DNA from: an uncultured Pseudomonadales bacterium | Lineage (GTDB): Bacteria; Patescibacteriota; Microgenomatia; UBA1400; PJMF01 | Assembly: GCA_964406075.1 (NCBI GenBank) | Contig: CAYOQI010000004.1 | Coordinates: forward strand, 57,718 to 121,717 | Length of the DNA stretch: 64,000 bases | Direction of reading: 5' to 3' | In this document: piece by piece, positions 8,818 through 52,173 of the stretch | How positions within the stretch are numbered: position 1 is the stretch's first letter | Layout: every line of letters begins with the position of its first letter | Notes under the pieces: generated by a model | The model's input: the letters and a program-made list of their open reading frames with translations, nothing else | Database searches by the model: none | Told to the model about the DNA's origin: nothing | Position numbers and translations under genes: made by a program

Positions 8818-8867
8818 ATATAAATAGCCTTGACTTTTTTATAAAGAGCAATGAGAATGATGTCTAT

Positions 8868-9197: not shown

Positions 9198-9303
9198 AAT
9201 TCTCTACTTCATTGATCATTTTTAAAAAAAACATAGATCTTTAGAATTTTTTTAGTTATTACCCACTAGTTTCGTACACGCTTTCCGCTGTTATACTACA
9301 AGT

Positions 9304-12564: not shown

Positions 12565-12576
12565 TTGATTTTAAAT

Positions 12577-13634: not shown

Positions 13635-14076
13635 AAGAATTTATACGAATCTGAGTGGTAAAACGGTTTGATTGTAGTTCAAGAGTTAAATCACTTCCCG
13701 GTGGATTTGTTTCTTGCGGGGACAATTCTAGTTGCCCCGTCAATTTCCGAAAAAAAACAAGGTCTGCGGTTGAATTTAATTGAATACCATATTGATAAGA
13801 AATTTGTTTATTTTCAGGCAAAAGCAAGTAGAATCCTGGAGAAACGAATGAGATACCATAACTCTCCCCGTTTTGAGCCACACGTGATTTTTGTTGTGCT
13901 TGCTTGAGCTCAGCCACGATTTTGTCGCGTTCCTTGGTCAATCGTTGGCGCTCTAAAGTTCCAAGTAAATATGGGGTGCTCGCACCAACCACCAACGCAA
14001 TAATTGTCATCACCACAATCAACTCCACTAAAGTGAAACCAGATGAATTCTGATGTTGGGCAGAACGAAAAAACAT
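13597..14076 (-). CDS. prepilin-type pseudopilin
   Basis: The N-terminus is NSSG|FTLVELIVVMTIIALVV, a canonical prepilin cleavage and methylation motif. Confidence 0.8.
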   Translation of the reverse strand: MFFRSAQHQNSSGFTLVELIVVMTIIALVVGASTPYLLGTLERQRLTKERDKIVAELKQAQQKSRVAQNGESYGISFVSPGFYLLLPENKQISYQYGIQLNSTADLVFFRKLTGQLELSPQETNPPGSDLTLELQSNRFTTQIRINSYGVLDTTVPQPL

Positions 14077-34902: not shown

Positions 34903-35838
<936 letters not shown>

Positions 35839-36676
35839 TTATTAAGAATTTTCTCAATAAATGTCCAACCTTTGAACGATGTGTCTAAGTTTAAAATTTA
35901 AGAAATCATTAATTATTTCATTCACATTTTAAACTTTCTCAATGCAAATATTTTTAATATCACAAGGATTTTAAAATCAGCCTTTCTGTTATCATCCGTC
36001 ATTTTTTTGAATCACTTTTACGATGATCCTATATCATTCAGTGCTCAATGAGACGATAACAATTCTTATTGATTCCAATTTAGGCTTCAAATAACTACGA
36101 CTGAGTCCAACACTCTTCTTTTTTAATTTTCTCAAACAGAAAAGGAAATGAGTTTAAAATTACTTCATTTATATTTTTATATAAAAACAAAATTCTTTTT
36201 GAAAACAAGTTGATTGATTTTCATATATTCAAAAAATAATGATTGAGTTTGGTTTAGCAACTTCATCATTTGCTTCCACTCTTAGGTGATTTCTTTATCA
36301 CATAACACAAACGCATGCGTTAATAAACTATATTTGCATTGATAAATATTTTTTCTATCTTAGATTATATTTTTAACGATTACTGTTCTTGCGATATTAA
36401 TTGTTGCGTCTTCGGCTGAAATAATCTTGTGCTATTTTCAAAGAGTCTTCATTCCGCATTCATCACATAAACACCCACTGAAAGATTTTAACGATTTTAA
36501 AAAGACTTTGTATCAATTGATCAAGCAACTTGAGCGAAAATAATTTACAGAATCAAATGAGAGAAAATATTACCAGCAGGCTAAATATGTGAATAAAAAT
36601 GTGTTCGTTGTGAACTTTTATTTGTATTTTATTCGGTAATAATTAAACATGATTATTACGAAACACAGTACACCTC

Positions 36677-36706
36677 TTGACACCATCAGGTAAAAAATGC
36701 CTTAAT
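36677..36706 (+). promoter_or_regulatory. candidate sigma70-type promoter for the giant gene
   Basis: A consensus -35 TTGACA (36677-36682) is followed by an 18-nt spacer and CTTAAT (36701-36706), about 65 nt upstream of the ATG at 36772. The -10 match is only 4/6. Confidence 0.25.
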
Positions 36707-36771
36707 GAAGTTGGACAAAAAATGTGACAATTGCTCTTAAAATGTCCCACATTTCGTAAGAACGTAAAAAA

Positions 36772-39700
36772 ATGATTCCCAGTGATCTGCCCCCACTAGT
36801 CTCCATTCATGAAGCTGCAAAGTTTCTTAAAGTTTCGACAAAAACTTTACGTCGTTGGGAAGATCGACACATTTTGTTACCAGCTCGAACTTCTGGCGGA
36901 CACCGAAGATATGATCTCAACGAGATCAAGGCCTTCAAAAAACAAAAGTATTCCAGTGGCTCAGTCGTTCATCAAACAGTACTCCCACTTGCAACAGTTA
37001 AACCACTTGAATCAAAAGTGGTTGACCAAACAGATATTCTTCAAGTTTCCAAACCACTCATCATCAAACCCATTGATCATTTTCCGTTAAAAACACCGAA
37101 AGTAACTGCATACAAGCCATTCCCAGAGACAATTACGAAAGTAAAAAAAACATTTGAGTTTCCTTCATTCCAAGTTAGAAACAACATTCCTCCTCAGGTC
37201 GAAATTCCCACAGAGAAAATAACGGATTTCCCTATTCCAACCACTCCACCTTCTTGGGTGTCTGTCTCAATCGTGTTGGCTTTTTTCTTTATTTCAGCTG
37301 CAGCATTCAGTATTCAAGGTTTCTTCAAGCCTCTAGTTGCAAAACATCCAGTCCTAAGTGAAATTGCGTATTCCCTCGAAAAGAGATTGGCAATAAATGT
37401 TTTTCCTAAAAAAGAAGTGATGATTGTTCAGGCTAACGATAGCAAAGTCTTGGGAGAACACTCCAGCTTAGATTTTTTAAAATTTAATATTAATGTCGAG
37501 TCTTCTTTTCGCGAGTTTGCGAACTTCCTCTCAGATGTCAATGTCGAAGGAAATGCCACGGTCAGTGGAATTTTAAGTGTGAACTCCGGCTCACTTCAAA
37601 CAACTTCTGAAACAGCTCAAGTTTTTGAAAACGCTTCTACTCTCTCAATTGCTGCGAACACTGGCACCACAACAGTGAACAACTCACTAAACGTGGGTGG
37701 AAATTTAACAGTAATTGGTTTGATAAATGATATTGCCGGTACTCTCAATCTTTCCGGTAATACTTTGACTTCAACTGGTGATCTAGTTATTGATCCTGGC
37801 GGAGGTGGTGTTTCGATTGGAGATGCCACTCCAGGAATTATAGATATGACAGATGGAGATTTTTTTGTTTCAGGCGATGTAGAAATTGACGGCATTTTAT
37901 ACGCACCAACTGCAAATATATCAGGCACTGCGAGTATCGGCACTGTCTTGGTGAATTCCGACAGTATCAATGACTTTACTGGAACAGGCTTGACTGTCTC
38001 TGATGGAGCTCTTCAAACCACAATTGGCACATCGGTTTCTTCCTCTGAAATTGAGAATGACACAATTTTGGAAGAAGATCTTAAAGTCTCAAATGATGCG
38101 GTAAATGGTTATGCTCTTACCTATGATAATTCGACCGGCGGATTCACTTGGACAGATATTGCATCCAGTCAAGTTTGGATCGATGGTGGCTCAGTCTACT
38201 ATCAAGCCACGACCACCGATGATGTGGTGATTGGAGGTACTTCCAGCTTGGGTAAACTCTCGGTCGATGGGGATAGTGATGAAATCCAACTCGTAGTTCA
38301 AGGCAATGGGACGCAAACATCAAACATCTTCGTAGTTGAAGACTCCAGTGGGACAGATCTTTTTGTGGTGAACAATACTGGAAGCATCACCATTGCGTCT
38401 GGCCAAGATCTCACCATTGGGTCGATTGGATTGAATGATGTCGGAACAGATAATGTCACTTCTGGAGCATCACTTATCGGAGTGTTTGATGAATTCACTA
38501 ACTCCTCAGCTACGACACTACAAGATGTCCTCGATGATTTTGACGCTGCTATTGGTGGTGGAGCTTCAAAGTGGGCTCAAGATACTGGCTTTGTTTACCT
38601 AGCAAGTACGACTGACGACATCGTTGTCGGTGGTGACACAATAGCTAATGGTTCTTTGTATTTTGATGAATCTGCGGGAAGTCTGTATCTCGGAACTAAT
38701 GAGGCTTTGAACGGCTCACTTACTCTCTACTCTTCAGGAGCAGGGATAACTGACCCTACGATTACCGCAGATGCTACAGGAAATGCGAATATCACTACCT
38801 CTGCCACAGCCTTAGTAAATATATTAGCGGGTAATTTGAAAGTGGGTAATGGCGCGCCCACTCAGACCTTAAATGGTGAAGATGCCTATGTCGAAGGCAC
38901 GCTTGAAGTTGATGGGATACTCTACGCTGGTTCTGCCACTACAGCCTTAACCGTAGCAAGCGGACTGATCGATGCTGATGCAATTGCTTTAACTCCAACC
39001 ACTGAGGGATTAAGTGGTATCTCATCAGGCTCAGGTTTAGCGGTATACAGCGACACACTTTCTCTTCTCCAAGGTTGTGGTGATGGTCAAGTTTTGAAGT
39101 GGAACGAAACAAATGATTCATGGGAATGTGCAAATGATACCGGCGCTTCTTTTGCCGTGGTAAACATTGAGAACAATGATGTTGCAGTCGGGAGCAATGT
39201 CGATTCCATTGATTTCTCTACTGATTTCTTAGTCACTGCTTCCCCATCAAACGAAGCCAATGTTGCAATCGCCGATGACATTTTAAACTTCACAGAATTC
39301 TCTGATGCCCTTACCTTAGATGCCGCTACCACCATCACCAATTCTTTAGCCGGCAACTTGACAATCGACCTCACTTCAACCGGTGATTTCGTCATTGCAG
39401 ATGGTGGAGTTGCCTTCTTTACCTTTACTGATGGTGGTGCTTTAACTCAGGCTGGAAGCGGTCAAATAACCTTGACTGGAAACGTTGATGCTACAAATGG
39501 TCTTGATATAACAGGCGCTTCCCTAACGGTTGGTGGTGCAAATGCCACGATCACCACAGGTGGAGCGTTAACATTGGCATCAACAATTACAGCAGCGACC
39601 GACGAGACCATTAACGGCGTTGATATCAATGCCGGTACCGTTTCAGATGTTGTGAATTTAACTATTAATTCAGGTGGTGACTTAACCATTGGTTCAATCG

Positions 39701-42700
39701 GTTTGAATGATGTGGGTTCAGACAACATCACTTCCGGTGCTTCCTTAGTGGGAGTGTTTGATGAATTCACCAATTCAAGTGCAACAACTGTTCAAGACGT
39801 CTTAGATGATCTCGATGCAGCAATTGGTGCTGGTGCAAGTAAATGGACTGACTCTGGTACTGTTACCTACCTTACTGACACGACTGACAGTATTACGATT
39901 GGGAGTTCAACCGAACTTGGTAAACTTGCAGTCGATGGAGATGCTGATGAAGTTCAGTTATTAGTTCAAGGTAATGGAACCCAGACCAATGCCCTTGCAA
40001 TTTTTGAAGATTCAACAGGTGCTGACCAATTTAGCATTAGTAATACTGGAAACGTGACGTTAGCTGGAGATTTAACAATCAGTGGTGGAAATATTACCTC
40101 TGCAACTACCTTTGATTCCACCGCAACCGTAACAGGAACATTAACAGCAAATGGCACTTTAGATGCCAATGGGATCTTCACACTTGGTGACAATGGCGAA
40201 ACCGGTGCAATTGATACTTCTGATTGGGATATTTCTGCCACCGGTGTACTCACTGGAGTGAGTGGTATTACCACTGATGGTGGATACACTCAATCAGGCG
40301 CGACCGGAAATACATTTTCAGGCAATGTCGATGCAACTTCTGGCCTTGATGTCACAGGTGCTTCTCTGACTGTCGGTGGTGCAAATGCCACGATCACTAC
40401 AGGTGGAGCGTTAACTTTAGCCTCCACAATTACAGCCAACACAGATGAAACAGTGAACGGAGTTGATATTAATGCAGGGACTGTTTCTGATGTGGTGAAT
40501 TTAACAATCAATTCTGGTGGTGACTTAACTATCGGGTCAATCGGACTCAACGATATTGGTTCAGACAACATCACTTCCGGTGCTTCTTTAGTTGGAGTCT
40601 TCGATGAGTTTACTAATTCAGATGGTCTTAATGTACAAGATGTCCTTGATGACTTTGATGCTGCTATTGGTGCAGGTTCTAGTAAATGGACAGACTCTGG
40701 TACTGTTACCTACTTAACTTCTACTACTGATGACTTAGCCGTGGGAGGATCCACTGTCCTGGCTTCCATGTTTGGCATTGATGAATCGGCAGGAAATTTC
40801 TACTTTGGCTATGACAACTCAGTTTCCCCTACCTTCAACTTTGAAGCCTCTGATGGTGATGCTGGTGAATTTGGATTTAATACCAATGACACATTCTTCT
40901 TCTCCAATGCACGAGTGGGTGTCGGAACGACCAATCCTTCAAGGTTATTACATGTAAGTGATTCTTCAGGGTCGCCCGCCATTAGAGTTACTGGTTCAGC
41001 CAGTGGTTCACCGTTTATTGAGTTCGAACAGTCAGGAAATGTTAGAGGTGTTTTTGGTTATGATAATACAACTTCGACCTTGCAACTTGCATATGGAGCG
41101 AATTTTAGTACTACCTTCCTATCACTAAATAGTTCTGGTTCTATGGGTCTTGGAACCTCTGCACCTGACGCCGCATTAGAAATCAATCATGCTACGGGTG
41201 ATAGTTTACGACTTACATACAATGACTCAAATGGTTCCGCTACCAGCTACACAGACTTCTCTCTCGCCTCTGATGGAGATTTAACAATTGATAGTGCTGG
41301 TGGTGCCATAAACCTTGGTGCAAATGATGACCTCAATATCACTGCTTCTACTGACTTAATCTTTGGAGGATCAACCTCTCTTGGTGAATCTACAGGAGCG
41401 GCTGATTCAGGAGCTTTCTTAACTGGTATTTTTGATGAATTTGATAACTCTGCTTCCTCTACAGTACAAGATGTGATTGATGATATTGATGCAGCTATTG
41501 GAAATAGAACATACACTGCTGATAACTACGTGACTGATGGTCAAACTCTGACAGCTTCCATCAATGCCCTTGATATTGCACTTGCCTCTGTTTCAGGCGG
41601 TGCGTACACAGGATGGAGTATTGACGTGGATGATGACGGAGCTGATCCAATTGCAAGTGGAGCTACGCTGAATGTTGATGCTGGAAGTAATGTGTCATTG
41701 ACCTACACAGCTGGTACCAATACGCTTTTAATTGCTGCTACTGATACAAATACTACCTACACAGCTGGGAATGATCTTGATCTTACCGGAACGGTCTTCA
41801 GCCTAGAAACCACCCTCGATTTTGTCGACACAATTAATTTAGCTGGGACAGGAACTCTCAACGGTCTTGATGCCGTTGATGCTACTGGAGAAAATACTAT
41901 TGAGGCCCTGATCTTTGATACAGATGCTGAAAGTATTACCGGAGTCTGGACGGTAGCTGACTCGACCAACTTCAGAATTGGTACCGGTGGTGACTTAACC
42001 TTCGCTCATGATGGTTCAAACTCTACTATTACTAGTACGACGGGTGACTTACTTATCGACAATACAAATGCCACCGGTTCAACCATTTTTGACCTGGGCA
42101 CAGATACTTCAGCCACTGATTTCCTTATTAGGAATGATTCTGGCACTCAACTCTTAAGCTTGAACGGTGCCGGGGCACTTCAGCTTGGAAGCAATGGTCA
42201 AGATGGTCAGTTCATCCTCTACAACGAACTAGGTGTAACAGATTACACAAACACAATTAACCCAAGTGGTTCTCAGTCCCAAAACATCACCTATACCCTA
42301 CCTCCTGATGATGGTGGCGCTGATAATTACGTTCTCACCACGGATGGAAATGGCGTATTGCAATGGGAATCCGTCACTGGTGCCGGTGGAGGAAGTGGAG
42401 ATCTGACAGATATCATTGCTGGGAACTACATTGATGTTCAAAACGCTGGTGGTCCGAGTCCTACTGTAGACTTTGATCCAACCGAACTTGAAGGAGTGAC
42501 TTGGGGTGCCTCATCTGGCGCCAGTGAACCTTTTACCTGGACGTATGATGTGACGAACTCCGGAACTGATCCTTCCATCACTTTCGCGGACAATGCCATC
42601 ACTCTCACAGCAGCAACTCTTACAGCTAGTGGTGATTTAACAATTCAAGGTGGAGACGCAACGCTTGGAATGGCTGGAACCGATGGTTCGCTCACTTTTT

Positions 42701-45700
42701 ACAATGAACTCGGAGCCACAGATAGAAGTGTTATCTTTAACGTCTCGGGATCGCAGTCAGAAGATATTGTCTACACTCTTCCTCCTGATAATGGAGCTGC
42801 TGACAACTATGTTCTTACCACTGATGGGTCAGGTGTGTTGCAGTGGGAATCAGTTTCCGGAGCTGGTGGCGGAACAGGTGATGTTACCGATATCGTTGCT
42901 GGCAACTACATTGATGTTCAAAATGCTGGTGGCCCAAGCCCAACCGTGGACTTTGATCCAACTGAACTTGAAAGTGTGACCTGGGGAGCACAAACTGGTG
43001 CTTCATTTACCTGGACGTTTAATGCTTCATCTGGCACTGATACCAGTATCGCCTTTGCGGATGGCAGTATCTCCCCCACACTCGCTGCAACTGGACTATT
43101 CAATGTCTTAACTGGAAATTTGAAGGTCGGAAATGGAACACCTGGACTTTCGCTCGATGGTGAAGATGCATATATTGAAGGCACTTTTGAAGTGGACGGC
43201 GCATCTCAATTTGATGGTGCTTTGACAACTAATGGAACGTTAACCGCAAACGGCCAGTTCACACTCGGAGATAATGGTGATACTGGGGCTATTAATACCT
43301 CAGATTGGGATATTTCTACTACTGGTAGTCTCACAGGAATTTCTGGAATTGCGAATGACGGAAGCTATACCCAAACCGGATCAAGTGCAAATGCATTTAC
43401 AGGTGTAACAACATTTAACACTGATGTTGATTTCACCTTCGCTGATACTGAAAATATTGCCATTACTAATACCGTAACAGGCACAAACGGTCTCGATCTT
43501 ATTTCTGCTATTATCACAAATCAAACTTCCTCTGGAACTCAAAGAGGTATTGTTATTTCTAATGCGAACGATGCTGCCAACGCCTCAACTGAGTCATTAA
43601 TCTTCTTAGACAATGCCGAAACTACCGCTTCTACCCTTACAGACGCAATACTCATTACTTCATCTGGTGCTGATGGTGGCATTGTCGATGCCATTGATGT
43701 TTCAGCTGGCAACATCACCAATGCGCTCAATGTCGGTGGGAATAATATCATCGGAACAACAGCAGTCATAAACTTTGATAACTTTGACATTGATGGTTCA
43801 GGAAACCTCGTAACTGCTGGAACATTAACAGCTGCCACGAATGAAACAATTAATGGGGTTGATATCAATGCTGGAACTGTTTCAGATGTGGTGAATTTAA
43901 CAATCAATTCTGGTGGTGACTTAACTATTGGTTCAATCGGTCTCAATGATGTCGGATCAGACAACATCACCTCTGGGGCTTCCCTAGTTGGCATGTTTGA
44001 TGAGTTTGATAACTCTGCGTCCACCACAGTTCAAGATGTTATTGATGACATTGATGCAGCTATCGGGAATCGAACCTACACTGCTGATAACTATGTGACT
44101 GACGGTCAGAGTTTAACCGCTTCGATTGATGCCCTTGATGTTGCTCTTGCTGCTGTCTCCGGTGGTGCGTACACGGGCTGGGATTTAGATGGTGATTCCG
44201 GAACCGCCGAAACCATTGCTAATGGCAATACGGTCAATATCCTCGGTGGCACCAATGGAATTGATACCGTCGTAAGTGCGACTGATACTTTAACTATTAA
44301 TTTAGATACTACGGAAATTGGTACAAGCACTTTTGGATCTGGATCAGGTTTTACTTGGACTTTTGACGCCGGTGCTACTGATCCCACACTTGCCTTTGCA
44401 AGTAACGCCATTACTATCGGGGGTGCTGCTACACTCAACTTTGGCGGTACTCTTGACCTCGGAACAAACACTCTCAGTGATGGCAACTTTAATGGTAACT
44501 GGGCATTTAATAGTGGAAATCTCTCCGGGATTGGAACCATCGGTGCTTCTGGTGCGATTACTGCTGCAACCGATGAGACCATTAACGGCGTTGATATTAA
44601 TGCAGGGACTGTTTCTGATGTGGTGAATTTAACAATCAATTCTGGTGGTGACTTAACTATCGGGTCAATCGGACTCAACGATATTGGTTCAGACAACATC
44701 ACTTCCGGTGCTTCTTTAGTTGGAGTCTTCGATGAGTTTACTAATTCAGATGGTCTTAATGTACAAGATGTCCTTGATGACTTTGATGCTGCTATTGGTG
44801 CAGGTTCTAGTAAATGGACAGACTCTGGTACTGTTACCTACTTAACTTCTACTACTGATGACTTAGCCGTGGGAGGATCCACTGTCCTGGCTTCCATGTT
44901 TGGCATTGATGAATCGGCAGGAAATTTCTACTTTGGCTATGACAACTCAGTTTCCCCTACCTTCAACTTTGAAGCCTCTGATGGTGATGCCGGAGAGTTT
45001 GGTTTTAATACCAGTGATTCCTTCTTCTTTAGTAACGCCTTAGTTGGTATTGGAACTGCAAGTCCAAGCGAACAGCTAGAAGTTGGAGGAAATATCGAGC
45101 TAACTGCTGCAGTTCCTCGTCTTGCGTTTGACAATACGAACGGTGATAACGATTGGTATATACAAGCTTCAGCCACTGGCTTTCAGTTTAGAAACTCATC
45201 TGATAACGTCAACTACCTTTTGATCAATCAAACAGGTCTTGTAAGCATTGGTGGAGATGATTCCCCTGATTATCTGCTAGAACTTTATGATGCCACAGCC
45301 ACTCCTACATTTGCCTTATCTGATGATGATGTTACACACGGACTCACAACACTTGCTCAGACAGATGTGTTTTCTCATCTAACATCACTCTCAACCACAG
45401 CCGGAGGTGCAGAACTTACCACAATCAGTGACACAGATGCTCAAGCACTATCGATCCGAGGCGTGATTGGTTCTACTGACCCGACCGATACGACTCCAGC
45501 AGTTAAGCTTGTAGGTGCAAAGAGTAATGGAACAACCGGTATGGCAGATCTTGGTGCAGCAGAAACAGTATTCCAAGTTGCAAACAATGATGACGCTTCA
45601 GCATTAACAATACTTGGGAATGGAAATGTTGGGATCGGTGATACAACGCCAGCTGCACTTCTGACCGTTGGAACATCAGATGCATTACAAATTGATGCTT

Positions 45701-48700
45701 CTGGAAATGTTGTGACGACTGGAACAGTAACTGCAGCTACGAATGAAACAATTAATGGAGTTGATATTTCAGCAGGAACGGTTTCCGATGTGGTGAATTT
45801 AACAATTAACTCAGGTGGTGACTTAACTATTGGTTCAATTGGTTTGAATGATGTTGGAAGTGACAACATCACTTCTGGAGCATCGCTCGTTGGTGTGTTT
45901 GATGAGTTCACCAACTCAAGCGCAACAACAGTTCAAGATGTCTTAGATGATCTCGATGCAGCAATTGGTGCTGGGGCAAGTAAATGGACTGATGGTGGAG
46001 CTATTACCTACTTAACAGCAACAACAGATGACCTCGCTGTCGGTGCTTCCAACACTCTCACTGCTCCTTTCTCTGTCGATGTCTCTGCCAACTTAGTCAG
46101 AATCGGTACTGGTTCAACAGCCAATGCTCAACTTGACATGTATGCTTCAGATGGCGACACAGGAAGTCTTATTTACAATACTTCAGATCAATTTAACTTC
46201 ACCGGTGGTGATGTCTTGATTGGTCAGGCATTAACAGTAACTGGAACAACTACCGCCAATGGTGCCTTTGATGCCAATGGTCAGTTCGATCTTGGAGATG
46301 GTGGCGATGCTGGAACAATTTCTGCAACTACGCTAGACATTGATGCCACAGGTGCTCTTCAAATTAACTCCTCAGGTGGAGCTATTGGGATTGGTAATGA
46401 TGCTGTTGCTCAAGCAATTAACATTGGCACTGGTGCTGCAGCTCGAACCATCACTATGGGAAACAATACCGGTGCTTCAGCGCTCCAACTTACCTCAGGA
46501 ACTGGCGACATTACTTTGACATCAACTGACGATATCTTATTCACTCCTACTGACGATATGCTCGCAACCTTTGCCGCAGGCTCAGCATTTACTATAGATG
46601 CTGCAACCACTGATACGACAGTAACCGGCGGAGTTCTTGCCCTTGATGTCGATGCTGGAAATGCGGCTGTGATTGGAATTGATTTAGATTTTTCTCAATC
46701 AAGTGGAGCAACGACAGGGACAGATGCTATTGGTCAAAACATCGCTGTTTCAGCCAATGATGCAGATGGTGATGTATTTGGACTTTCAATCCGATCAAAT
46801 GCCACAGCCAATGCTGGAGTGGGTTCTTATGAGGCATTAATTCGACTAATTAATGCTGAAGATACCGCCTCGGCTGTAACAGACGCTATTTTAATTGACT
46901 CAACTTCAGGCGTAGACGGTGACATCATTGATGCGATCGATGTTTCTGATGCAAATATCACCAACGCTTTGAATGTTGGCGCCAACAATATTATTGGTAC
47001 TTCAGCTGTTATCAATTTCTCAAGCTTTGATGTAGATGCTTCAGGAAATACGATAATTGGTGGAACACTCGACGTCACTGGAATTTCAACTCTAGTTGGC
47101 AACTTGAACGCAAACGGTGGTCTTGATGTCGATAACGCATTCGTTGTAGCGGATGGTGGAGTGTTAACCACCTCTCAAACTGCTAACTTTGATGGCACAG
47201 CTGACTTTGATGGTGCTGCCGACTTCTCCGCTGGAGTTACAAACTCTGCAGGTGAATTCTTAGTTTCAGGTGGAAACCTCCAGCTCAATGACAATATTAA
47301 TTTGACGGTTGGAACTGGTGATGACTTAACTATCGTTCACAATGGAACCAACACACTTCTCACTTCCGTAACGGGTGACTTAATCTTTGATAATACTTTA
47401 GTAACTGGTTCTACTATCTTTGATCTTGGAACCGATACCTCTGCAACTGACTTCTTAATTCGAAACAATTCTGGAACTCAACTTCTCAGCATGAACGGTG
47501 CTGGTGCATTCCAACTTGGATCAAATGGTCAAGATGGCCAGTTCATTCTCTATAACGAACTGGGTGGAACTGACTACACAAATACAATTAACCCAAGTGG
47601 TTCTCAATCTCAAAATATTACCTATACCCTCCCTCCAGACGACGGCGGACTAAACTACGTTCTTACCTCAGATGGTAGTGGTGTACTCACCTGGCAGTCT
47701 GTCGGTGGAATCGGAGCTGGTGGAGATTTAACTGACATTGTTGCCGGAAACTACATTGATGTCCAAAATGCTACCGGGCCAAGTCCTACAATAGATTTCG
47801 ATCCAACCGAACTCGAAACCGTGACCTGGGGTGCCCAAGCTGGATCTTCCTTTGCTTGGACATTTAACGCGTCAAGTGGCACTGATCCTGTCATGACATT
47901 TGCCGATAATGCCATCACTCTTACAGCTGCTACCACTACTCTCTCTGGAGATCTTGCGATCAATGGTGGAAATGTCACAACCGCGACCACCTTTGACTCA
48001 ACACTGACAGCAACAGGGACACTTACAGCAAATGGAGCCCTTGATGCTAATGGTCAGTTCGATCTTGGAGATGGTGGCGATGCTGGAACAATTTCTGCAA
48101 CTACGCTAGACATTGATGCCACAGGTGCTCTTCAAATTAACTCCTCAGGTGGAGCTATTGGGATTGGTAATGATGCTGTTGCTCAAGCAATTAACATTGG
48201 CACTGGTGCTGCAGCCAGAACAATCACAGTGGGAAACAATACCGGTGCCTCCGCACTCCAACTCACCTCAGGAACCGGAGACATCAACTTGAATTCTGCC
48301 GATGATATTTTCCTGAGTCCAAGTGATGACCTTACGGCCTTCATCACCGCCGTTGGTCAATTTACTATTGATGCGGCAACAATTGATAGTCAGAATACCC
48401 TCGGCGCATTTAGACTTGATATTGATAGCTCTACATCAGGGACTATTGGATTCTTGACCAACTTTAGAGCTATTGATGATGACGCAGCCGACATTCTCTA
48501 CGCCAATCGTACTGATGTCACAATTCAAGATGATACCACTGCTTCTGACACCGTCTATGGAAATTATATTAGTCTCATTCAGAATGACACCACACCAGCA
48601 ACAACATATGGCTTAGCGGTAGTAGCAGAAGATGCTGGTACTTCCCCTGTCTCTACTGGAATCTTAATTGAAAACTTACAAGCAACTGATATTGATCTCA

Positions 48701-51700
48701 CCGATGGTCTGTTGATCAGAGCAACAACAGATGGTTCATTAGTAGATGCTATTGATGCGTCAGATGCAGAAATTACCAATGCCTTAAATATTGGGGCAAA
48801 CACAATCTTAGGAACAACTGGGGTTATCGATTTCACTAACTTTGATGTTGCAGCTACAGGTGCGCTCTCACTCTCTACCGCCGGAAATACCTCAGCCTCC
48901 TTCACCAGAACATCTGCTGGTCAATGGATGGCATTCAACGATGGCACCGATACTTGGGGTATTTACAACACCGCTGGTAGTCCTGAAGCATCGTTGACCG
49001 CAAATACTGGAGCCCTCGCAATGGATACAACCAATGGAACTCTCTATGTCAAAACTGATGATGGCGATAACACAGGGTGGGTAAACCTCGCTTCCGGTGC
49101 TTCTTCACCTTGGACTGATTCAGGGACGACTTCCTACTTAACCGATACTACAGATGAAGTAGTGATTGGTGGAGCTTCCCCACTTTCCAGTGCCAAATTT
49201 TCAATCGATGGAGATGCGGATCAAACTCAACTACTTGTCCAAGGCAATGCAACTCAAACCACAGACCTCGCAATCTTTGAGAACTCAGCGGGAGCAGATC
49301 AATTCAACTTCAGTAATACTGGAAACTTGATTGCAGCTGGAGACATTACTGCCACTGGTGGAACATTCAACGGTGCATCTGGAGAAAGTATTGACCTCGG
49401 AGTCGCAAGCTCAGATGTCCTCACCTTCACGACTGGAGCCTCAACTGAACTACTCCTTTCCACAACTAACTTAACAGCTGGAACAGCTGAAGGAAACTCA
49501 CTTGGATCTGCAACAGTAGAATGGGAACAACTCTTCCTTGGTGATAACAATGGAATTTCCTTTGGTCTCGATCAAGATTGGTCATTTGGTTATGATGAAG
49601 CTACAGATGATCGACTTGAATTAATCACAGCAGGAACGTCTGGAATGTTAATCCAATCCGCAACGGCTACTGGCAACGGATTAGCACTTACTTTTGATTC
49701 ACTCTCAACCGGTGAAGGACTCTACTTGTCTTCTACTTCAACAGCATTAACATCAGGTGGACATCTTGGTCTCTTCGAGTGGAATCCTGGAAGTGCCAGT
49801 TCGACCACCGCAGATCTGTTTAGTATCAATATTGGAAGTAACGCCACTGTGCTGGGAGATATCTTTAATGTTCAAGATAACGGCTCTGATCTTTTCTCCG
49901 TTGGAGAAGCTCAAATTACCTCTGCTCTTCCCCACTCATTTACCGCAGCCGGCGATGTATCAGTGGCCTACGATCTCCAATTTACCAATCAAACTGCTAG
50001 TTATTTGAAAACATACGGCCCACTTCAGATCGAAGCTGGTGAATCGTTTGAATCAAATAACTTAACGATAAAAACATATAACTCAGGTGACGTCGTCATT
50101 GATCTACCAGCCACCGGCCAAATGATCGTACAAGGTGCGTTCTCAATTGGAGATCAGCAAACACTTCCTGCCGGAACCACACCTTCCGTAGCCGGTGGTT
50201 CACACTACATTGGAAACGCGAATGGATTGATCACCAACTTCACCAGTGGAACTGCAGGTCAGATCCTAGTACTTGAGTTCGATGGAACTTCGACTGACCT
50301 CGACTGTAGCACTGCCGGACCGATTCGTTGTGGAAGTACAGATATCACTACCCAACAAGCAGCCGGTGACATCATTACCTTCATTTATGACGGAACAAAC
50401 TGGAACATGATCGAGTATGTAGCACTGGACGCAGACTCTACAGCTGGAGCTGACCTTGCCGAGTACTACCCCGCTTCTGAACACTTAGAGCCAGGTGACA
50501 TCGTCAGTATTGATTCAACTCAGCCAGTGATGGTGGAAAAATCTCACGAGTCTCATCGTCAACGAATAATGGGTATCGTATCAAGTGATCCAGGATTATT
50601 ACTTGGTGAAGAAGCGGATAATTCTTACCCCATCGCCTTGGCAGGGCGTGTGCATGTAAAAATGTCAGAATCATCTGAAGCTATTCAACCCGGCGACTTA
50701 GTTGGAGTTTCTCAGGAAACCGGAAAAGCCAAAAAAGTAAACTCTGGATATACAGTTGGCCGTGCTCTTGAATCATGGGATCCAAACTCTGGCGATCGAG
50801 ATGTGGTGGTATTTGTGAACTTATCATATATTCCCGTAGATTTAGCTTTAAATAATGATGGTCAAGTCAGCTCAAGCTACTCACTTATTACGACGGATTC
50901 TCTTGAGTACGCGATTCGCGATCTGAACAATGGACAGGATATTCAACAAACCTTAGTCTTGGCCGAATCATTGATTGGACGACTGGAAACCGGAAGTATA
51001 GTTACTCGAGAATTACAAGCTCAAAGTATCGAAACTGAAGACTTCCTCACGAATAACGCCACAGTATCTGGACAACTCAATGCCAACTCTGCAGAAATTA
51101 ACTCATTGAGATTTGAAACCGCCACAGTGGCGGGTCAACTTTTCTTATCAGATGGACGAAGTGTCGGCTCATTACTGGATGAAAATGATGCCTACTTAGC
51201 TTCCCTCTCAGCTCAGACCCAACAACTCGCACAATCATTTAGTGAGCAAACTGTCCCAGGCACATCCACAGCCTTTGATGAATTCCTCGCTCAACTGACA
51301 GGTACAGAAGACGCTTCTCTCTCAGCTGCCTTAGCAGCAATTCAGAATCAAGAAGATATTGAACTCGATGCAGAAAGCATGGTCCTGGCACCAGACGCAG
51401 TCTTTGTCAAAGAATACTTGAATGTCACCGGCTTCACTCAATTAACTACGGCCAGCATTTCTCAATCACTTACTGTGGGAGATGGTTTACTCTTAACTCA
51501 AGATACGATCGCCACAGCAGAGGAAACACTCTATATCCAACCAACTGCCGGATCACTGAACTTACTCGCCGGTTTGATGACACTCACTCCAGATGGAAAC
51601 GTCACGATTAACGGTGATCTGACTGTTACTGGAATCGCTTCCATTACTGATGGAGTGAAAACTAGTCAGCTCTCTCCAAATGACTTTACGCAAGATTTGA

Positions 51701-52173
51701 CAGTCAAACTTGCATCAGAATCAGCCTCAGTCTTGGGCACAACTGATAGCTCAGAGTTCCAGATTTTGAACGCCAGTAACTCAGCAGTGGCCAGTATCGA
51801 TGCATCTGGATCCGCCAAGTTCTCTAGCATTTCAACTGAAGGCTTAGTCTTGAAACAACCTCAGTCAGAGGCATCATCCTCTGCTCAACGACAAGCTGAA
51901 ATTGCTCGCAAACAAACAGCGGGACAATTAACTCTTGAGGCTGGTGAAGTCACAATGGAAATTGAGAATGATAATGTTGAAGACGACAGCTTGATTTATC
52001 TCACTGCAACTTCAGATACTCAAAACCAAGTCATGTATGTTGGAGAGAAAGAAACCTGTGCATTTGCTGGCCCAACCTGTCAAACCAGCTTCACCGTAAA
52101 AATTAATCAACCGATTGCTACAGACATTAAGTTCAACTTCTGGATTGTAAATGTCTCAAAACAACAGCCGTAA
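36772..52173 (+). CDS. giant (5133 aa) surface repeat protein: N-terminal MerR/excisionase-type HTH, single TM anchor, Thr/Gly/Asp/Asn-rich repetitive ectodomain
   Basis: An uninterrupted 15.4-kb ORF. Residues 10-57 (SIHEAAKFLKVSTKTLRRWEDRHILLPARTSGGHRRYDLNEIKAF) match the MerR/HTH_17 pattern. Residues ~161-185 (WVSVSIVLAFFFISAAAFSIQGFF) form the only TM segment. At least 7 copies of a TINSGGDLTIGSIGLNDVGSDNITSGASLVGVFDEFTNS..VQDVLDD.DAAIG module lie between ~38400 and 45980. Three copies of a GSTIFDLGTDTSATDFLIRN...ITYTLPPDDG..YVLT.DG.GVL.W module also occur. There is almost no Cys. Confidence 0.9.
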   Translation: MIPSDLPPLVSIHEAAKFLKVSTKTLRRWEDRHILLPARTSGGHRRYDLNEIKAFKKQKYSSGSVVHQTVLPLATVKPLESKVVDQTDILQVSKPLIIKPIDHFPLKTPKVTAYKPFPETITKVKKTFEFPSFQVRNNIPPQVEIPTEKITDFPIPTTPPSWVSVSIVLAFFFISAAAFSIQGFFKPLVAKHPVLSEIAYSLEKRLAINVFPKKEVMIVQANDSKVLGEHSSLDFLKFNINVESSFREFANFLSDVNVEGNATVSGILSVNSGSLQTTSETAQVFENASTLSIAANTGTTTVNNSLNVGGNLTVIGLINDIAGTLNLSGNTLTSTGDLVIDPGGGGVSIGDATPGIIDMTDGDFFVSGDVEIDGILYAPTANISGTASIGTVLVNSDSINDFTGTGLTVSDGALQTTIGTSVSSSEIENDTILEEDLKVSNDAVNGYALTYDNSTGGFTWTDIASSQVWIDGGSVYYQATTTDDVVIGGTSSLGKLSVDGDSDEIQLVVQGNGTQTSNIFVVEDSSGTDLFVVNNTGSITIASGQDLTIGSIGLNDVGTDNVTSGASLIGVFDEFTNSSATTLQDVLDDFDAAIGGGASKWAQDTGFVYLASTTDDIVVGGDTIANGSLYFDESAGSLYLGTNEALNGSLTLYSSGAGITDPTITADATGNANITTSATALVNILAGNLKVGNGAPTQTLNGEDAYVEGTLEVDGILYAGSATTALTVASGLIDADAIALTPTTEGLSGISSGSGLAVYSDTLSLLQGCGDGQVLKWNETNDSWECANDTGASFAVVNIENNDVAVGSNVDSIDFSTDFLVTASPSNEANVAIADDILNFTEFSDALTLDAATTITNSLAGNLTIDLTSTGDFVIADGGVAFFTFTDGGALTQAGSGQITLTGNVDATNGLDITGASLTVGGANATITTGGALTLASTITAATDETINGVDINAGTVSDVVNLTINSGGDLTIGSIGLNDVGSDNITSGASLVGVFDEFTNSSATTVQDVLDDLDAAIGAGASKWTDSGTVTYLTDTTDSITIGSSTELGKLAVDGDADEVQLLVQGNGTQTNALAIFEDSTGADQFSISNTGNVTLAGDLTISGGNITSATTFDSTATVTGTLTANGTLDANGIFTLGDNGETGAIDTSDWDISATGVLTGVSGITTDGGYTQSGATGNTFSGNVDATSGLDVTGASLTVGGANATITTGGALTLASTITANTDETVNGVDINAGTVSDVVNLTINSGGDLTIGSIGLNDIGSDNITSGASLVGVFDEFTNSDGLNVQDVLDDFDAAIGAGSSKWTDSGTVTYLTSTTDDLAVGGSTVLASMFGIDESAGNFYFGYDNSVSPTFNFEASDGDAGEFGFNTNDTFFFSNARVGVGTTNPSRLLHVSDSSGSPAIRVTGSASGSPFIEFEQSGNVRGVFGYDNTTSTLQLAYGANFSTTFLSLNSSGSMGLGTSAPDAALEINHATGDSLRLTYNDSNGSATSYTDFSLASDGDLTIDSAGGAINLGANDDLNITASTDLIFGGSTSLGESTGAADSGAFLTGIFDEFDNSASSTVQDVIDDIDAAIGNRTYTADNYVTDGQTLTASINALDIALASVSGGAYTGWSIDVDDDGADPIASGATLNVDAGSNVSLTYTAGTNTLLIAATDTNTTYTAGNDLDLTGTVFSLETTLDFVDTINLAGTGTLNGLDAVDATGENTIEALIFDTDAESITGVWTVADSTNFRIGTGGDLTFAHDGSNSTITSTTGDLLIDNTNATGSTIFDLGTDTSATDFLIRNDSGTQLLSLNGAGALQLGSNGQDGQFILYNELGVTDYTNTINPSGSQSQNITYTLPPDDGGADNYVLTTDGNGVLQWESVTGAGGGSGDLTDIIAGNYIDVQNAGGPSPTVDFDPTELEGVTWGASSGASEPFTWTYDVTNSGTDPSITFADNAITLTAATLTASGDLTIQGGDATLGMAGTDGSLTFYNELGATDRSVIFNVSGSQSEDIVYTLPPDNGAADNYVLTTDGSGVLQWESVSGAGGGTGDVTDIVAGNYIDVQNAGGPSPTVDFDPTELESVTWGAQTGASFTWTFNASSGTDTSIAFADGSISPTLAATGLFNVLTGNLKVGNGTPGLSLDGEDAYIEGTFEVDGASQFDGALTTNGTLTANGQFTLGDNGDTGAINTSDWDISTTGSLTGISGIANDGSYTQTGSSANAFTGVTTFNTDVDFTFADTENIAITNTVTGTNGLDLISAIITNQTSSGTQRGIVISNANDAANASTESLIFLDNAETTASTLTDAILITSSGADGGIVDAIDVSAGNITNALNVGGNNIIGTTAVINFDNFDIDGSGNLVTAGTLTAATNETINGVDINAGTVSDVVNLTINSGGDLTIGSIGLNDVGSDNITSGASLVGMFDEFDNSASTTVQDVIDDIDAAIGNRTYTADNYVTDGQSLTASIDALDVALAAVSGGAYTGWDLDGDSGTAETIANGNTVNILGGTNGIDTVVSATDTLTINLDTTEIGTSTFGSGSGFTWTFDAGATDPTLAFASNAITIGGAATLNFGGTLDLGTNTLSDGNFNGNWAFNSGNLSGIGTIGASGAITAATDETINGVDINAGTVSDVVNLTINSGGDLTIGSIGLNDIGSDNITSGASLVGVFDEFTNSDGLNVQDVLDDFDAAIGAGSSKWTDSGTVTYLTSTTDDLAVGGSTVLASMFGIDESAGNFYFGYDNSVSPTFNFEASDGDAGEFGFNTSDSFFFSNALVGIGTASPSEQLEVGGNIELTAAVPRLAFDNTNGDNDWYIQASATGFQFRNSSDNVNYLLINQTGLVSIGGDDSPDYLLELYDATATPTFALSDDDVTHGLTTLAQTDVFSHLTSLSTTAGGAELTTISDTDAQALSIRGVIGSTDPTDTTPAVKLVGAKSNGTTGMADLGAAETVFQVANNDDASALTILGNGNVGIGDTTPAALLTVGTSDALQIDASGNVVTTGTVTAATNETINGVDISAGTVSDVVNLTINSGGDLTIGSIGLNDVGSDNITSGASLVGVFDEFTNSSATTVQDVLDDLDAAIGAGASKWTDGGAITYLTATTDDLAVGASNTLTAPFSVDVSANLVRIGTGSTANAQLDMYASDGDTGSLIYNTSDQFNFTGGDVLIGQALTVTGTTTANGAFDANGQFDLGDGGDAGTISATTLDIDATGALQINSSGGAIGIGNDAVAQAINIGTGAAARTITMGNNTGASALQLTSGTGDITLTSTDDILFTPTDDMLATFAAGSAFTIDAATTDTTVTGGVLALDVDAGNAAVIGIDLDFSQSSGATTGTDAIGQNIAVSANDADGDVFGLSIRSNATANAGVGSYEALIRLINAEDTASAVTDAILIDSTSGVDGDIIDAIDVSDANITNALNVGANNIIGTSAVINFSSFDVDASGNTIIGGTLDVTGISTLVGNLNANGGLDVDNAFVVADGGVLTTSQTANFDGTADFDGAADFSAGVTNSAGEFLVSGGNLQLNDNINLTVGTGDDLTIVHNGTNTLLTSVTGDLIFDNTLVTGSTIFDLGTDTSATDFLIRNNSGTQLLSMNGAGAFQLGSNGQDGQFILYNELGGTDYTNTINPSGSQSQNITYTLPPDDGGLNYVLTSDGSGVLTWQSVGGIGAGGDLTDIVAGNYIDVQNATGPSPTIDFDPTELETVTWGAQAGSSFAWTFNASSGTDPVMTFADNAITLTAATTTLSGDLAINGGNVTTATTFDSTLTATGTLTANGALDANGQFDLGDGGDAGTISATTLDIDATGALQINSSGGAIGIGNDAVAQAINIGTGAAARTITVGNNTGASALQLTSGTGDINLNSADDIFLSPSDDLTAFITAVGQFTIDAATIDSQNTLGAFRLDIDSSTSGTIGFLTNFRAIDDDAADILYANRTDVTIQDDTTASDTVYGNYISLIQNDTTPATTYGLAVVAEDAGTSPVSTGILIENLQATDIDLTDGLLIRATTDGSLVDAIDASDAEITNALNIGANTILGTTGVIDFTNFDVAATGALSLSTAGNTSASFTRTSAGQWMAFNDGTDTWGIYNTAGSPEASLTANTGALAMDTTNGTLYVKTDDGDNTGWVNLASGASSPWTDSGTTSYLTDTTDEVVIGGASPLSSAKFSIDGDADQTQLLVQGNATQTTDLAIFENSAGADQFNFSNTGNLIAAGDITATGGTFNGASGESIDLGVASSDVLTFTTGASTELLLSTTNLTAGTAEGNSLGSATVEWEQLFLGDNNGISFGLDQDWSFGYDEATDDRLELITAGTSGMLIQSATATGNGLALTFDSLSTGEGLYLSSTSTALTSGGHLGLFEWNPGSASSTTADLFSINIGSNATVLGDIFNVQDNGSDLFSVGEAQITSALPHSFTAAGDVSVAYDLQFTNQTASYLKTYGPLQIEAGESFESNNLTIKTYNSGDVVIDLPATGQMIVQGAFSIGDQQTLPAGTTPSVAGGSHYIGNANGLITNFTSGTAGQILVLEFDGTSTDLDCSTAGPIRCGSTDITTQQAAGDIITFIYDGTNWNMIEYVALDADSTAGADLAEYYPASEHLEPGDIVSIDSTQPVMVEKSHESHRQRIMGIVSSDPGLLLGEEADNSYPIALAGRVHVKMSESSEAIQPGDLVGVSQETGKAKKVNSGYTVGRALESWDPNSGDRDVVVFVNLSYIPVDLALNNDGQVSSSYSLITTDSLEYAIRDLNNGQDIQQTLVLAESLIGRLETGSIVTRELQAQSIETEDFLTNNATVSGQLNANSAEINSLRFETATVAGQLFLSDGRSVGSLLDENDAYLASLSAQTQQLAQSFSEQTVPGTSTAFDEFLAQLTGTEDASLSAALAAIQNQEDIELDAESMVLAPDAVFVKEYLNVTGFTQLTTASISQSLTVGDGLLLTQDTIATAEETLYIQPTAGSLNLLAGLMTLTPDGNVTINGDLTVTGIASITDGVKTSQLSPNDFTQDLTVKLASESASVLGTTDSSEFQILNASNSAVASIDASGSAKFSSISTEGLVLKQPQSEASSSAQRQAEIARKQTAGQLTLEAGEVTMEIENDNVEDDSLIYLTATSDTQNQVMYVGEKETCAFAGPTCQTSFTVKINQPIATDIKFNFWIVNVSKQQP
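40462..40862 (+). repeat. 401-bp perfect intragenic repeat, copy A
   Basis: By eye it is identical base for base to 44590..44990 (offset 4128 bp). Identity stops abruptly at both ends. Confidence 0.85.
44590..44990 (+). repeat. 401-bp perfect intragenic repeat, copy B
   Basis: See copy A. The flanking sequence is only about 70-85% similar. Confidence 0.85.
46276..46442 (+). repeat. 167-bp perfect intragenic repeat, copy A
   Basis: Identical to 48049..48215 (offset 1773 bp). The following ~100 nt are about 85% similar. Confidence 0.85.
48049..48215 (+). repeat. 167-bp perfect intragenic repeat, copy B
   Basis: See copy A. Confidence 0.85.

Follow-up and report, generated by a model that had tools for sequence, protein, structure and literature searches.

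The 64-kb window analysed here (64,000 nucleotides of contig CAYOQI010000004.1, from an uncultured member of the Microgenomatia) encodes a protein of 5133 amino acids (aa) in which a BldC-like winged helix-turn-helix (HTH) domain, predicted to be cytoplasmic, is joined through a disordered linker and a single transmembrane (TM) helix to an acidic, repetitive surface fibre. A conserved motif, TTGGACA, at the promoter of this giant gene is newly described here. Based on comparisons across orthologous loci, we lean towards the view that the protein is a BldC-like transmembrane transcription regulator that would repress its own promoter.

Patescibacteria, or Candidate Phyla Radiation (CPR) bacteria, make up a large share of bacterial diversity, are attached to other cells and have very few recognisable regulators. 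To our knowledge, almost nothing has been established about the control of CPR surface structures. The gene described here is a vertically inherited core gene of Microgenomatia that places a DNA-binding domain and a giant surface fibre in one polypeptide, accompanied by a conserved candidate operator. If the link between domain and motif holds, it would provide a compact and directly testable regulatory circuit (motif, domain and promoter) for an uncultivated phylum. The protein would then be an extreme transmembrane transcription regulator (TTR), with an outer part about twenty times larger than that of ToxR or CadC, and would extend the BldC family to membrane-tethered forms. The giant also offers a handle on the physical coupling of transcription, translation and membrane insertion of a giant protein. 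Its features within the window are as follows.

36772..52173, + strand: giant gene, an unbroken open reading frame (ORF) of 5133 aa
36796..36954, + strand: BldC-like winged HTH, aa 9-61 (Pfam, phmmer against PDB, AlphaFold2, Foldseek, codon entropy)
36955..37251, + strand: Pro/Lys/Thr-rich linker, predicted cytoplasmic and disordered, aa 62-160 (composition, AlphaFold2)
37252..37320, + strand: single TM helix, aa ~161-183 (Kyte-Doolittle peak; AlphaFold2 helix 163-180)
37321..52170, + strand: acidic repetitive ectodomain (fibre), ~4950 aa (composition, repeats)
37441..37557, + strand: conserved juxtamembrane start of the ectodomain, ..VLG/A..F.[IV]NV..F.. (family alignment)
50446..50838, + strand: conserved C-terminal-region beta domain, GADLAE.Y...GD.V..., aa ~4559-4689 (AlphaFold2, Foldseek, weak Pfam)

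The N-terminal domain and its fusion to the ectodomain

The reading frame of the giant opens only at 36760, four codons upstream, which makes the ATG at 36772 the earliest possible start; an entry identical to the 5133-aa protein (P0020) is present in a public protein collection. The initial annotation, made from the sequence alone, had proposed a MerR/HTH_17-type HTH near residues 10-57, a Pro/Lys-rich linker of about 100 residues and a sole TM segment, and each of these was borne out. Three Pfam models matched residues 10-59 above their cutoffs, namely MerR (PF00376, 41 bits, cutoff 28.2), MerR_1 (PF13411, 38.9 bits, cutoff 21.6) and HTH_17 (35.2 bits, cutoff 27). The nearest NCBIfam models were BldC, HspR, CarH, excisionase and RacA, every one of them under its cutoff. 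An AlphaFold2 (AF2) model of the N-terminal region, built with an 11-sequence alignment, folded aa 9-61 as a beta-alpha-alpha-beta-beta-alpha winged HTH with a predicted local distance difference test score (pLDDT) of 94-96. Foldseek placed BldC-DNA complexes at the top of its PDB matches (TM-score to target 0.75-0.81, root-mean-square deviation 1.6 Å, 41% identity), followed by RacA-DNA, CarH-DNA and classical MerR proteins, and a phmmer search of PDB sequences aligned about 51 residues with BldC (6amk/6ama, E 3e-7, 41% identity). By sequence and predicted fold, the N-terminal HTH is genuine and of the DNA-binding type.

BldC of Streptomyces (PDB 6AMA, 6AMK), the founding effector-less MerR-like winged HTH regulator, is thus the closest known system in sequence, fold and contact residues. 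As in BldC, there is a winged HTH only, without a coiled coil or effector domain: the Pfam scan found no domain after the HTH in the giant, and the AF2 model contains no coiled coil there, the chain being disordered from aa 63 to about 160 and then entering the TM helix. Unlike BldC, which is a free cytoplasmic protein of 68 aa, the HTH here forms the N-terminus of a 5133-aa membrane protein. Classical MerR proteins were considered and set aside; the winged HTH matches, but the coiled-coil dimerisation helix and the effector-binding domain are missing, and the candidate sites described below lie downstream of the −10 element of a predicted promoter with a spacer of 17-19 nt, not as a dyad inside a 19-20 bp spacer. 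The earlier label 'MerR/excisionase-type' holds for its first half, the domain being a MerR-superfamily winged HTH of BldC-like form, and does not extend to an excisionase in a mobile-element setting. HTH_17 was matched above its cutoff, but the excisionase profile TIGR01764 was not (22.7 bits, cutoff 28.8), and the mobile-element context expected of an excisionase is absent: the neighbours encode ATP synthase, cofactor-independent phosphoglycerate mutase (iPGM), leucyl-tRNA synthetase (LeuRS) and Obg, synteny is kept in 62 of 68 loci, and no integrase or mobile element is found among them.

The linker (residues 61-160) consists of 16% Pro, 11% Lys and 12% Thr, was modelled by AF2 at pLDDT 43-57 without secondary structure, and varies in length from 20 to 146 aa across relatives (median 67). 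In a Kyte-Doolittle scan of the whole giant in 19-aa windows, a single peak exceeded 2 (aa 163-181, 2.37), and the next highest reached 1.35. Beyond the TM helix, V226 and L227 of the juxtamembrane motif are near-invariant in the family alignment. From hydropathy and charge we infer a type-II membrane protein with its N-terminus inside and its C-terminus outside. Counting 15 residues per side, the TM flanks of this giant carry charges of about −1 before and +1 after the helix and do not follow the positive-inside rule, which the family average does (+2.05 before, +1.10 after). The HTH is a basic, folded domain of 60 aa with 13 Lys and Arg residues and no signal, and is assigned to the cytoplasm because such a domain is not plausibly exported. 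The ectodomain is placed outside the cell because an unexportable N-terminal domain is followed by one TM helix, the composition is of an extracellular type, and the family flank charges agree.

The same layout recurs widely. In a word-indexed search with aa 1-290 as query, the matches were short proteins, mostly on short contigs, which keep the order of HTH, variable linker, TM helix and the VLA/G..F.VNV..F.. motif that opens the fibre. A profile of the N-terminal module, from the HTH to the juxtamembrane motif, was searched against 1.84 billion representative proteins and gave 145 matches below 1e-30; among the best 150 matches, most align their N-terminus in one stretch over nearly the whole profile. 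At least one HTH followed by exactly one strong TM segment was present in 58 of the 71 representative proteins of at least 700 aa, and the longest family members reach 7954, 7646, 7408 and 6172 aa. The automatic annotation 'excisionase family DNA binding protein' sits on 7408-aa relatives. A locus scan with the peptide pattern VSTKTLRRW, using one genome per GTDB species, returned 80 loci, about 65 of which encode an HTH at aa ~15-50, one TM helix at aa ~75-206 and, beyond it, anything from hundreds of residues to more than 3600, with ORFs that mostly run to the end of the locus or contig. Tandem copies of the HTH, two or three before the TM helix, occur in the giants P0021, P0022, P0027 and L024.

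Codon-level variation was assessed across 68 loci. With the nine VSTKTLRRW codons excluded, entropy in the HTH was 0.94, 0.62 and 1.70 bits at codon positions 1, 2 and 3; within VSTKTLRRW, a peptide that is itself the collection pattern, third positions were saturated and all synonymous codons were used. Both the codon-position entropy and the synonymous codon use point to translation of the HTH and to purifying selection at the protein level. Apart from the ATG at 36772, the frame offers just two possible starts before the TM helix, a TTG within the HTH (codon 35) and a GTG (codon 83); the first in-frame ATG after the start region is codon 217, beyond the TM helix.

These data bear on whether the fusion is an artefact, either of a small regulator and a giant gene joined by a sequencing or assembly error or of a true start located after the HTH. 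The absence of an obvious Shine-Dalgarno-like sequence before the ATG at 36772 would fit such an artefact, as would an in-frame TAA in loci L001 and L002, though this stop falls after the TM helix and not between the HTH and the TM helix. Against it stand the recurrence of this continuous ORF at some 65 loci from separate species and in 58 of the representative proteins, the restriction of alternative starts to codons 35 and 83, and the codon statistics for HTH translation, so that the probability of an artefact is negligible and this explanation is effectively refuted. Both objections that the initial annotation had raised against itself fall away, a downstream start in view of the codon-level purifying selection on the HTH and a hidden stop in view of the same fusion in dozens of species. 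As judged from these sequence comparisons, the fusion is ancient and under selection. A literature search of limited breadth found no description of an HTH-anchored giant protein in CPR bacteria, nor of a cytoplasmic HTH on a phage fibre or on a described CPR surface protein.

Locus L001 (10001-15895) has its own layout, also present in L002, in which one in-frame TAA after codon 258 cuts off the HTH-TM part as a stub, while the fibre continues in frame for more than 1600 aa beyond it. This TAA occurs in two assemblies and could reflect a pseudogene, a real split or readthrough. The gene upstream in L001 (5547-9653, 1368 aa) has Phage_int_SAM-type matches at its N-terminus and a weak Peptidase_S74 match, and may be another case of a DNA-binding-like head on a fibre.

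The TTGGACA motif and its possible relation to the HTH

The motif was first seen in the printed 70 nt before orthologue start codons. When 7-mers between −120 and +12 were counted against the rest of about 1 Mb of loci, TTGGACA/TGTCCAA ranked first, with 90 occurrences observed vs. 1.93 expected (47-fold), and was present in this interval in 57 of 68 loci; the variant TTAGACA was enriched 38-fold. The extended consensus is AAAnTTGGACAWTT. A position weight matrix (PWM) of the motif placed 136 of its 274 matches in 994 kb within the 170 nt before the start codon, although it was trained on the same regions that it scored, the 7-mer count being the unbiased and independent test. In the 64-kb window, four of the top five PWM matches fall inside the intergenic region between the giant gene and the divergent ATP-synthase operon, where the following elements were recognised.

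36677..36682, + strand: −35-like hexamer TTGACA (sequence reading; recurs at a matching distance from the sites in most orthologous loci)
36698..36706, + strand: extended −10-like element TGcCTTAAT (18 nt after the −35; recurs in orthologous upstream alignments)
36707..36720, + strand: motif site 1, GAAGTTGGACAAAA, core TTGGACA at 36711-36717 (exact heptamer, PWM 14.9 bits)
36723-36729, + strand: degenerate direct copy TGTGACA (sequence reading)
36740..36753, − strand: motif site 2, an imperfect inverted copy, TGTCCCA on the + strand at 36743-36749 (PWM 11.4 bits)
35859..35892, − strand: a further pair of motif sites, AAACTTAGACACAT and AAGGTTGGACATTT, spaced by 20 bp in front of the divergent gene (PWM 14.4 and 15.1 bits)

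Aligning orthologous upstream regions on their sites gave the promoter pattern TTGACA-N17-19-TGnCTTAAT, with the first site directly after the −10 element or about 20 nt further on; TGnCTTAAT or TGnCGTAAT stands at the same position in L004, L005, L006, L007, L020, L033, L039 and L190. Site 1 in the window abuts the −10 element and covers the expected transcription start. Of 40 convergent (inverted) pairs, 30 had a start-to-start distance of 18-20 bp; direct repeats were spaced by 10 bp (n = 17), 12 bp (n = 5) or 21 bp (n = 5) and were the only arrangement in about 11 loci. The spacing of 18-20 bp in inverted pairs and of 10 bp in direct repeats fits protein binding on one face of the DNA. On the divergent side, a CTTAAT hexamer lies 16 nt after TTGGAC in the sites at 35859..35892, and a site near the start of this neighbouring gene was also found in 22 of 65 loci.

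Inverted pairs fall in the predicted 5′ leader, and an RNA stem was therefore considered as their main explanation and rejected. Many loci contain direct repeats only, and the stem is conserved rather than co-varying, without compensation: among distinct combinations of half-site deviations there were eight mismatch types vs. one Watson-Crick compensated and one G-U combination. Rfam gave no match in 35600-36900. Since the evidence for an RNA stem fails, the sites are better regarded as independent half-sites read by a sequence-specific protein.

Whether that protein is the HTH of the giant was approached through the BldC-DNA complexes. In BldC, K26 and R30 contact major-groove bases, R30 reading a YpG step; T27 and T29 touch phosphates, W31 kinks the DNA, and H46, R47 and R48 enter the AT-rich minor groove (PMC5859096). 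Each protomer covers a site AATTxxxx(C), arranged in 9-bp direct repeats (PMC5859096). K26, T27, R30, W31, H46, R47 and R48 of BldC align with K24, T25, R28, W29, H44, R45 and R46 of the giant, and the residues equivalent to DNA contacts occupy invariant or near-invariant columns of the family, with the reservation that the invariance of the recognition helix in the collected loci is partly ascertainment, these having been collected by VSTKTLRRW. For the same reason there is no helix variation to compare with the alternation between TTGGACA and TTAGACA. The A-rich tract of the motif and its core with TpG steps are at least compatible with BldC-type recognition.

A further indication comes from the wing, where the orthologues divide about evenly between His and Gln at the position of H44, the equivalent of BldC H46. 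Direct repeats with a spacing of 9-12 bp were found in none of 35 His-type loci vs. 22 of 33 Gln-type loci (Fisher's exact test, 4.8e-10) and convergent pairs in 26 of 35 vs. 13 of 33 (p = 0.0065), statistics that ignore phylogeny and may reflect only two clades. Such co-variation of a wing residue with site layout would be expected if the protein and its operator had evolved together. The arrays of 10-bp direct repeats, in which an A-rich tract precedes a G/C-containing core, resemble the 9-bp repeats of BldC, and occur only upstream of Gln-type orthologues; His-type orthologues, this giant included, have inverted pairs. Many candidate sites thus differ from those of BldC in being inverted, and the interface residue also differs. 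Taken together, it is highly likely that the HTH binds DNA, and it is probable, with a good deal less assurance, that the TTGGACA motif is its operator.

Several points weigh against this assignment, in addition to the limits of phylogeny, collection and training attached to the figures above. The link between HTH and motif is circumstantial, and the motif could instead be bound by a soluble paralogue that shares the recognition helix. Soluble family proteins with two to eight HTH copies do exist; in the set P0019, P0030, P0031, P0032, P0036 and P0080 they comprise one 623-aa protein with eight copies and proteins of 117-190 aa with two, and the small ones are candidate soluble binders of the same motif. 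L43 of BldC, which together with F21 and W31 forms the hydrophobic head-to-tail interface, corresponds to Ser41 in the giant and is variable among relatives, and the NCBIfam BldC model NF033787 scores only 34.9 bits vs. a cutoff of 77. The operator in the window is weaker than those of relatives, with one perfect heptamer and an imperfect copy at an atypical spacing of 32 bp, site 1 to site 2, vs. the usual 18-20 bp; because the window's own array is weaker than most, the argument for an operator is a comparative one. A generic sigma-70 and terminator scan of the intergenic region called no more than in shuffled sequence and did not call TTGACA, and the predicted promoter elements were taken from cross-species alignment. 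In a reverse search from motif to gene, metagenome contigs were scanned with TTGGACAN{11,13}TGTCCAANTTT; of the at least 120 loci listed, a single one (L190) contained an HTH-TM-giant gene, the result being dominated by chance matches and not to be read as a negative one, with the other loci comprising chance matches, unrelated hairpins and recombinase leaders.

One such hairpin, TTGGACAGACTTTTGAGCCTGTCCAATTTT, is near-identical in L085, L107, L112, L119, L122, L132, L134, L137, L155, L177, L186 and L199, occurs on many gut and other metagenome contigs, and matches the search pattern by coincidence.

Other sequence elements were noticed near the start of the gene. A CTGCC(C) element (36787-36792 in the window) is present in 59 of 68 loci (L003-L082), 49-60 nt upstream of the V codon of VSTKTLRRW, against a background of 0.14 per 130 nt. 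It occurs in all three reading frames (31, 17 and 11 loci), and is therefore conserved as nucleotides and not as Leu-Pro codons. High-scoring TTGGACA sites also lie within coding regions, in the linker before the TM helix in L036 (~10369-10403) and after the TM helix, just before the VLAxE codons, in L039 (10550-10574) and L064 (10388-10436); these could be an internal promoter or operator, or a coincidence of Lys-Val-Leu-Gly/Ala codons. In L082, an identical pair of direct sites (AAACTTAGACAAAG, AAAGTTGGACAAAC) occurs twice, at 5664-5687 and 9950-9973, with a duplicate about 160 nt upstream of a gene for a 727-aa envelope protein (5834-8017), which hints that the regulon can include other surface proteins.

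Possible functions of the membrane-tethered HTH

TTRs combine a DNA-binding domain with a TM segment in one protein, and are reported to be widespread, 56% of them being single-pass (PMC10269533). Because its chain unites a predicted DNA-binding domain with a TM segment, the giant belongs to this class by definition. It resembles the TTRs ToxR, TcpP, CadC and VtrA, whose DNA-binding domain lies N-terminally in the cytoplasm and is followed by one TM helix and a C-terminal part beyond the membrane. Those proteins carry an OmpR-type winged HTH and periplasmic sensors of 100-300 aa, whereas the giant has a MerR/BldC-type HTH, with no Pfam match to the OmpR/PhoB-type domain (Trans_reg_C), and a repetitive outer part of about 4950 aa. 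A further difference from ToxR-type regulators is that the candidate operator of the giant sits on its own promoter.

Three functional ideas had been put forward with the initial annotation: a one-component transmembrane signalling device that would relay contact or tension on the fibre, release of the HTH by regulated proteolysis, and physical tethering of the chromosome to a putative attachment organelle. A one-component regulator held in the membrane is the best supported of them, because the BldC contact residues are kept and a conserved motif lies on the gene's own promoter. We consider auto-repression somewhat the better guess for its action, since the sites sit at or just after the −10 element, a position typical of repressors; the sign of the effect is inferred from site position only. 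In such a mechanism, a cytoplasmic, effector-less BldC-like HTH (the first 61 residues), joined via a flexible tether of about 100 aa and a TM helix to a surface fibre, would bind AAAnTTGGACAWTT sites at or just after the −10 element of its own promoter. In about a third of the species, this one included, it would also act at the promoter of the divergent ATP-synthase operon. Auto-repression would match the production of a very expensive fibre to how many anchors the membrane already holds, with three HTHs per fibre if the fibre is trimeric, and the flexible linkers of 20-146 aa would permit binding in either orientation.

RacA of Bacillus subtilis suggests a different use of the same fold. 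It has a MerR-like winged HTH with an equivalent Arg making YpG contacts, and attaches DNA to the envelope. By analogy, the HTH of the giant could be architectural, anchoring the nucleoid or locus at the fibre base, while a soluble regulator owns TTGGACA; in a variant, it would hold its own gene at the membrane during long co-translational insertion, without transcription control. RacA, a chromosome anchor of the same fold, is among the best structural matches and gives weak NCBIfam matches, there are small soluble proteins that carry the same HTH at least twice, and an HTH tied to the membrane by about 100 aa of tether can reach only DNA in the vicinity of the membrane. RacA itself is soluble, forms a coiled-coil dimer, reaches the membrane via DivIVA and binds GC-rich sites around the origin, all unlike the giant, and membership of the RacA family was rejected (NCBIfam 18 bits vs. 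a cutoff of 170; no coiled coil in the AF2 model). Those same values speak against an architectural role, as no coiled coil or DivIVA-type partner is evident, and so do two observations made above, namely that strong DNA conservation near the gene was seen only in the motif array at its own promoter and that the giant's wing residue co-varies with array layout. An architectural role therefore appears rather unlikely.

In regulated proteolysis, as in anti-sigma or CadC-type systems, fibre damage, shedding or engagement would lead to cleavage near or in the TM helix, the HTH would be freed or destroyed, and target promoters would change state. Such a scheme could work with the HTH bound to the same motif. 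A long disordered linker with a single TM helix has the substrate geometry of site-1/site-2 systems, proteolytic activation is established for the membrane regulator CadC (PMC11484849), and the HTH-TM stub of 258 aa in L001 shows that the N-terminal module can stand apart. No conserved cleavage motif was identified, the syntenic neighbours are ATP-synthase genes and no protease, and the window encodes an M16 peptidase but no site-2 protease, which together make this route unlikely.

RodZ shares the overall layout, with an HTH at its cytoplasmic N-terminus, one TM helix and a domain on the outer side. Its HTH is of the XRE type and binds MreB instead of DNA, and its outer domain is small, unlike that of the giant. 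An HTH without a DNA role, serving as a protein-protein adaptor in the manner of RodZ and MreB or as a basic folded plug that fixes the N-in topology, might be entertained on this model, and since the TM flanks of this giant are not strongly positive-inside, a basic N-terminal domain could help to orient the protein. Every DNA-contact residue of BldC is nevertheless retained, a topology plug needs no invariant recognition helix, and the motif arrays and their co-variation with the wing residue would be left unexplained. The 2506-aa surface protein encoded directly downstream (see below) moreover uses an ordinary signal anchor, and the HTH is for that reason not a generic export device. A function without DNA is accordingly judged very unlikely.

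Within the favoured reading of the giant as an auto-repressing membrane-bound regulator, a more speculative version can be formulated, in which the fibre would count itself in cis, the nascent chain holding its own gene at the membrane. The HTH would leave the ribosome first, and the TM helix would be inserted while RNA polymerase transcribes the other ~15 kb. The HTH would then close on the TTGGACA operator, at a distance of a few hundred base pairs, and prevent a new round of initiation during synthesis of that copy and throughout the lifetime of the anchor. Once the anchor is lost or processed, the promoter would become accessible again, and so would the ATP-synthase operon in the one third of species whose divergent promoter also has sites. 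If this were true, the status of the surface fibre, and possibly host attachment, would be coupled to energy metabolism in an episymbiont. We regard such cis-counting as improbable, if attractive.

The ectodomain, neighbouring genes and carriers

The ectodomain is strongly acidic (611 Asp and Glu vs. 71 Lys and Arg) and rich in Thr, Gly, Ala and Ser, with six Cys in total that form three close pairs. It contains seven copies of a module of about 70 aa ending in DV[LI]DD[LFI]DAAIG. The Pfam scan found no confident domain in it, the PDB sequence search gave no match for the last 883 aa, and an LPXTG-type C-terminal sorting signal is not present in the giant; a PHROG tail-fibre family was matched weakly (E 4.5e-4). 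The C-terminal-region beta domain was modelled by AF2 at pLDDT 87-95 and is also found in other CPR proteins. Foldseek related it weakly to phage capsid decoration or cement proteins and to the C-termini of tailspikes and depolymerases (E 1e-3 to 0.1, TM-score to target 0.45-0.6), and it had weak Pfam matches to Phage_depo_C, Phage_cement_2 and Peptidase_G2. A phage fibre or tailspike with an intramolecular chaperone was considered and rejected (Peptidase_G2 E 0.013, 15.4 bits, cutoff 25; no S74 match); the likeness to phage fibres is a weak one of fold and profile in this domain, whereas the giant gene is chromosomal and stands beside housekeeping genes. Phage decoration and tailspike proteins that resemble the domain are trimeric. 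A trimeric fibre is on that ground a reasonable suggestion, and by this analogy the fibre is probably oligomeric. Presumably it is an adhesin of an episymbiotic, Woesebacteria-like Microgenomatia cell. Very large proteins of Patescibacteria are reported to be mainly surface-targeted, and a role in host interaction has been proposed for them (PMC13059738).

The giant gene lies among chromosomal housekeeping and envelope genes (ATP synthase, iPGM, LeuRS, arginyl-tRNA synthetase, Obg, ComEC/ComEA, pseudopilins, sortase and glycosyltransferases). Clustering of upstream ORFs showed that in 62 of 68 loci it is divergent from the same gene of about 255 aa, followed by the genes for ATP-synthase alpha, gamma and beta. 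Because of this strong synteny and the housekeeping surroundings, we regard the giant as a vertically inherited core gene and not as a mobile element. No further copy of its HTH is encoded elsewhere in the 64-kb window. The two adjacent genes are:

34903..35682, − strand: divergent neighbour at the head of the ATP-synthase operon, with a signal peptide, an extracellular beta domain and an ATP-synthase-c-like hairpin
52448-59968, + strand: second giant gene, 2506 aa, directly downstream, with eight Laminin_G_3 (concanavalin-like) domains and Toxin_R_bind_N-like matches

The beta domain of the divergent neighbour is homologous to the C-terminal-region domain of the giant (BLASTP E 4e-8), and its C-terminal two-helix hairpin matches ATP-synt_C weakly over the full length (E 0.009). 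Its family comprises 446 proteins, about 255 aa long, from Woesebacteria, Gottesmanbacteria and other Microgenomates, some of them labelled F0F1 subunit c by the Joint Genome Institute (JGI); a c-subunit bearing an outer domain would be unusual. The 2506-aa protein has an ordinary N-terminal signal anchor without an HTH, and no TTGGACA site occurs in the 274 nt upstream of its gene. Elsewhere in the window (8041-14076 and 21835-24865) are genes for a sortase, a VirD4/TrwB-like ATPase, a VWA protein, a pseudopilin with an N-methylation motif, ComEC and ComEA, which is the usual surface and competence toolkit of CPR bacteria.

Orthologues come from records titled Woesebacteria, Levy(i)bacteria, Amesbacteria, Shapirobacteria and Microgenomatus, with one from Saccharimonadales. 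Together with the names on homologues of the divergent neighbour, these titles assign the window to a genome of the Microgenomatia. Dozens of Third Party Annotation (TPA) records of metagenome-assembled genomes (L003, L005, L008-L010 and others) are titled 'uncultured Gammaproteobacteria bacterium' and carry the Microgenomatia-specific synteny; the Gammaproteobacteria labels on these records look like placeholders or errors.

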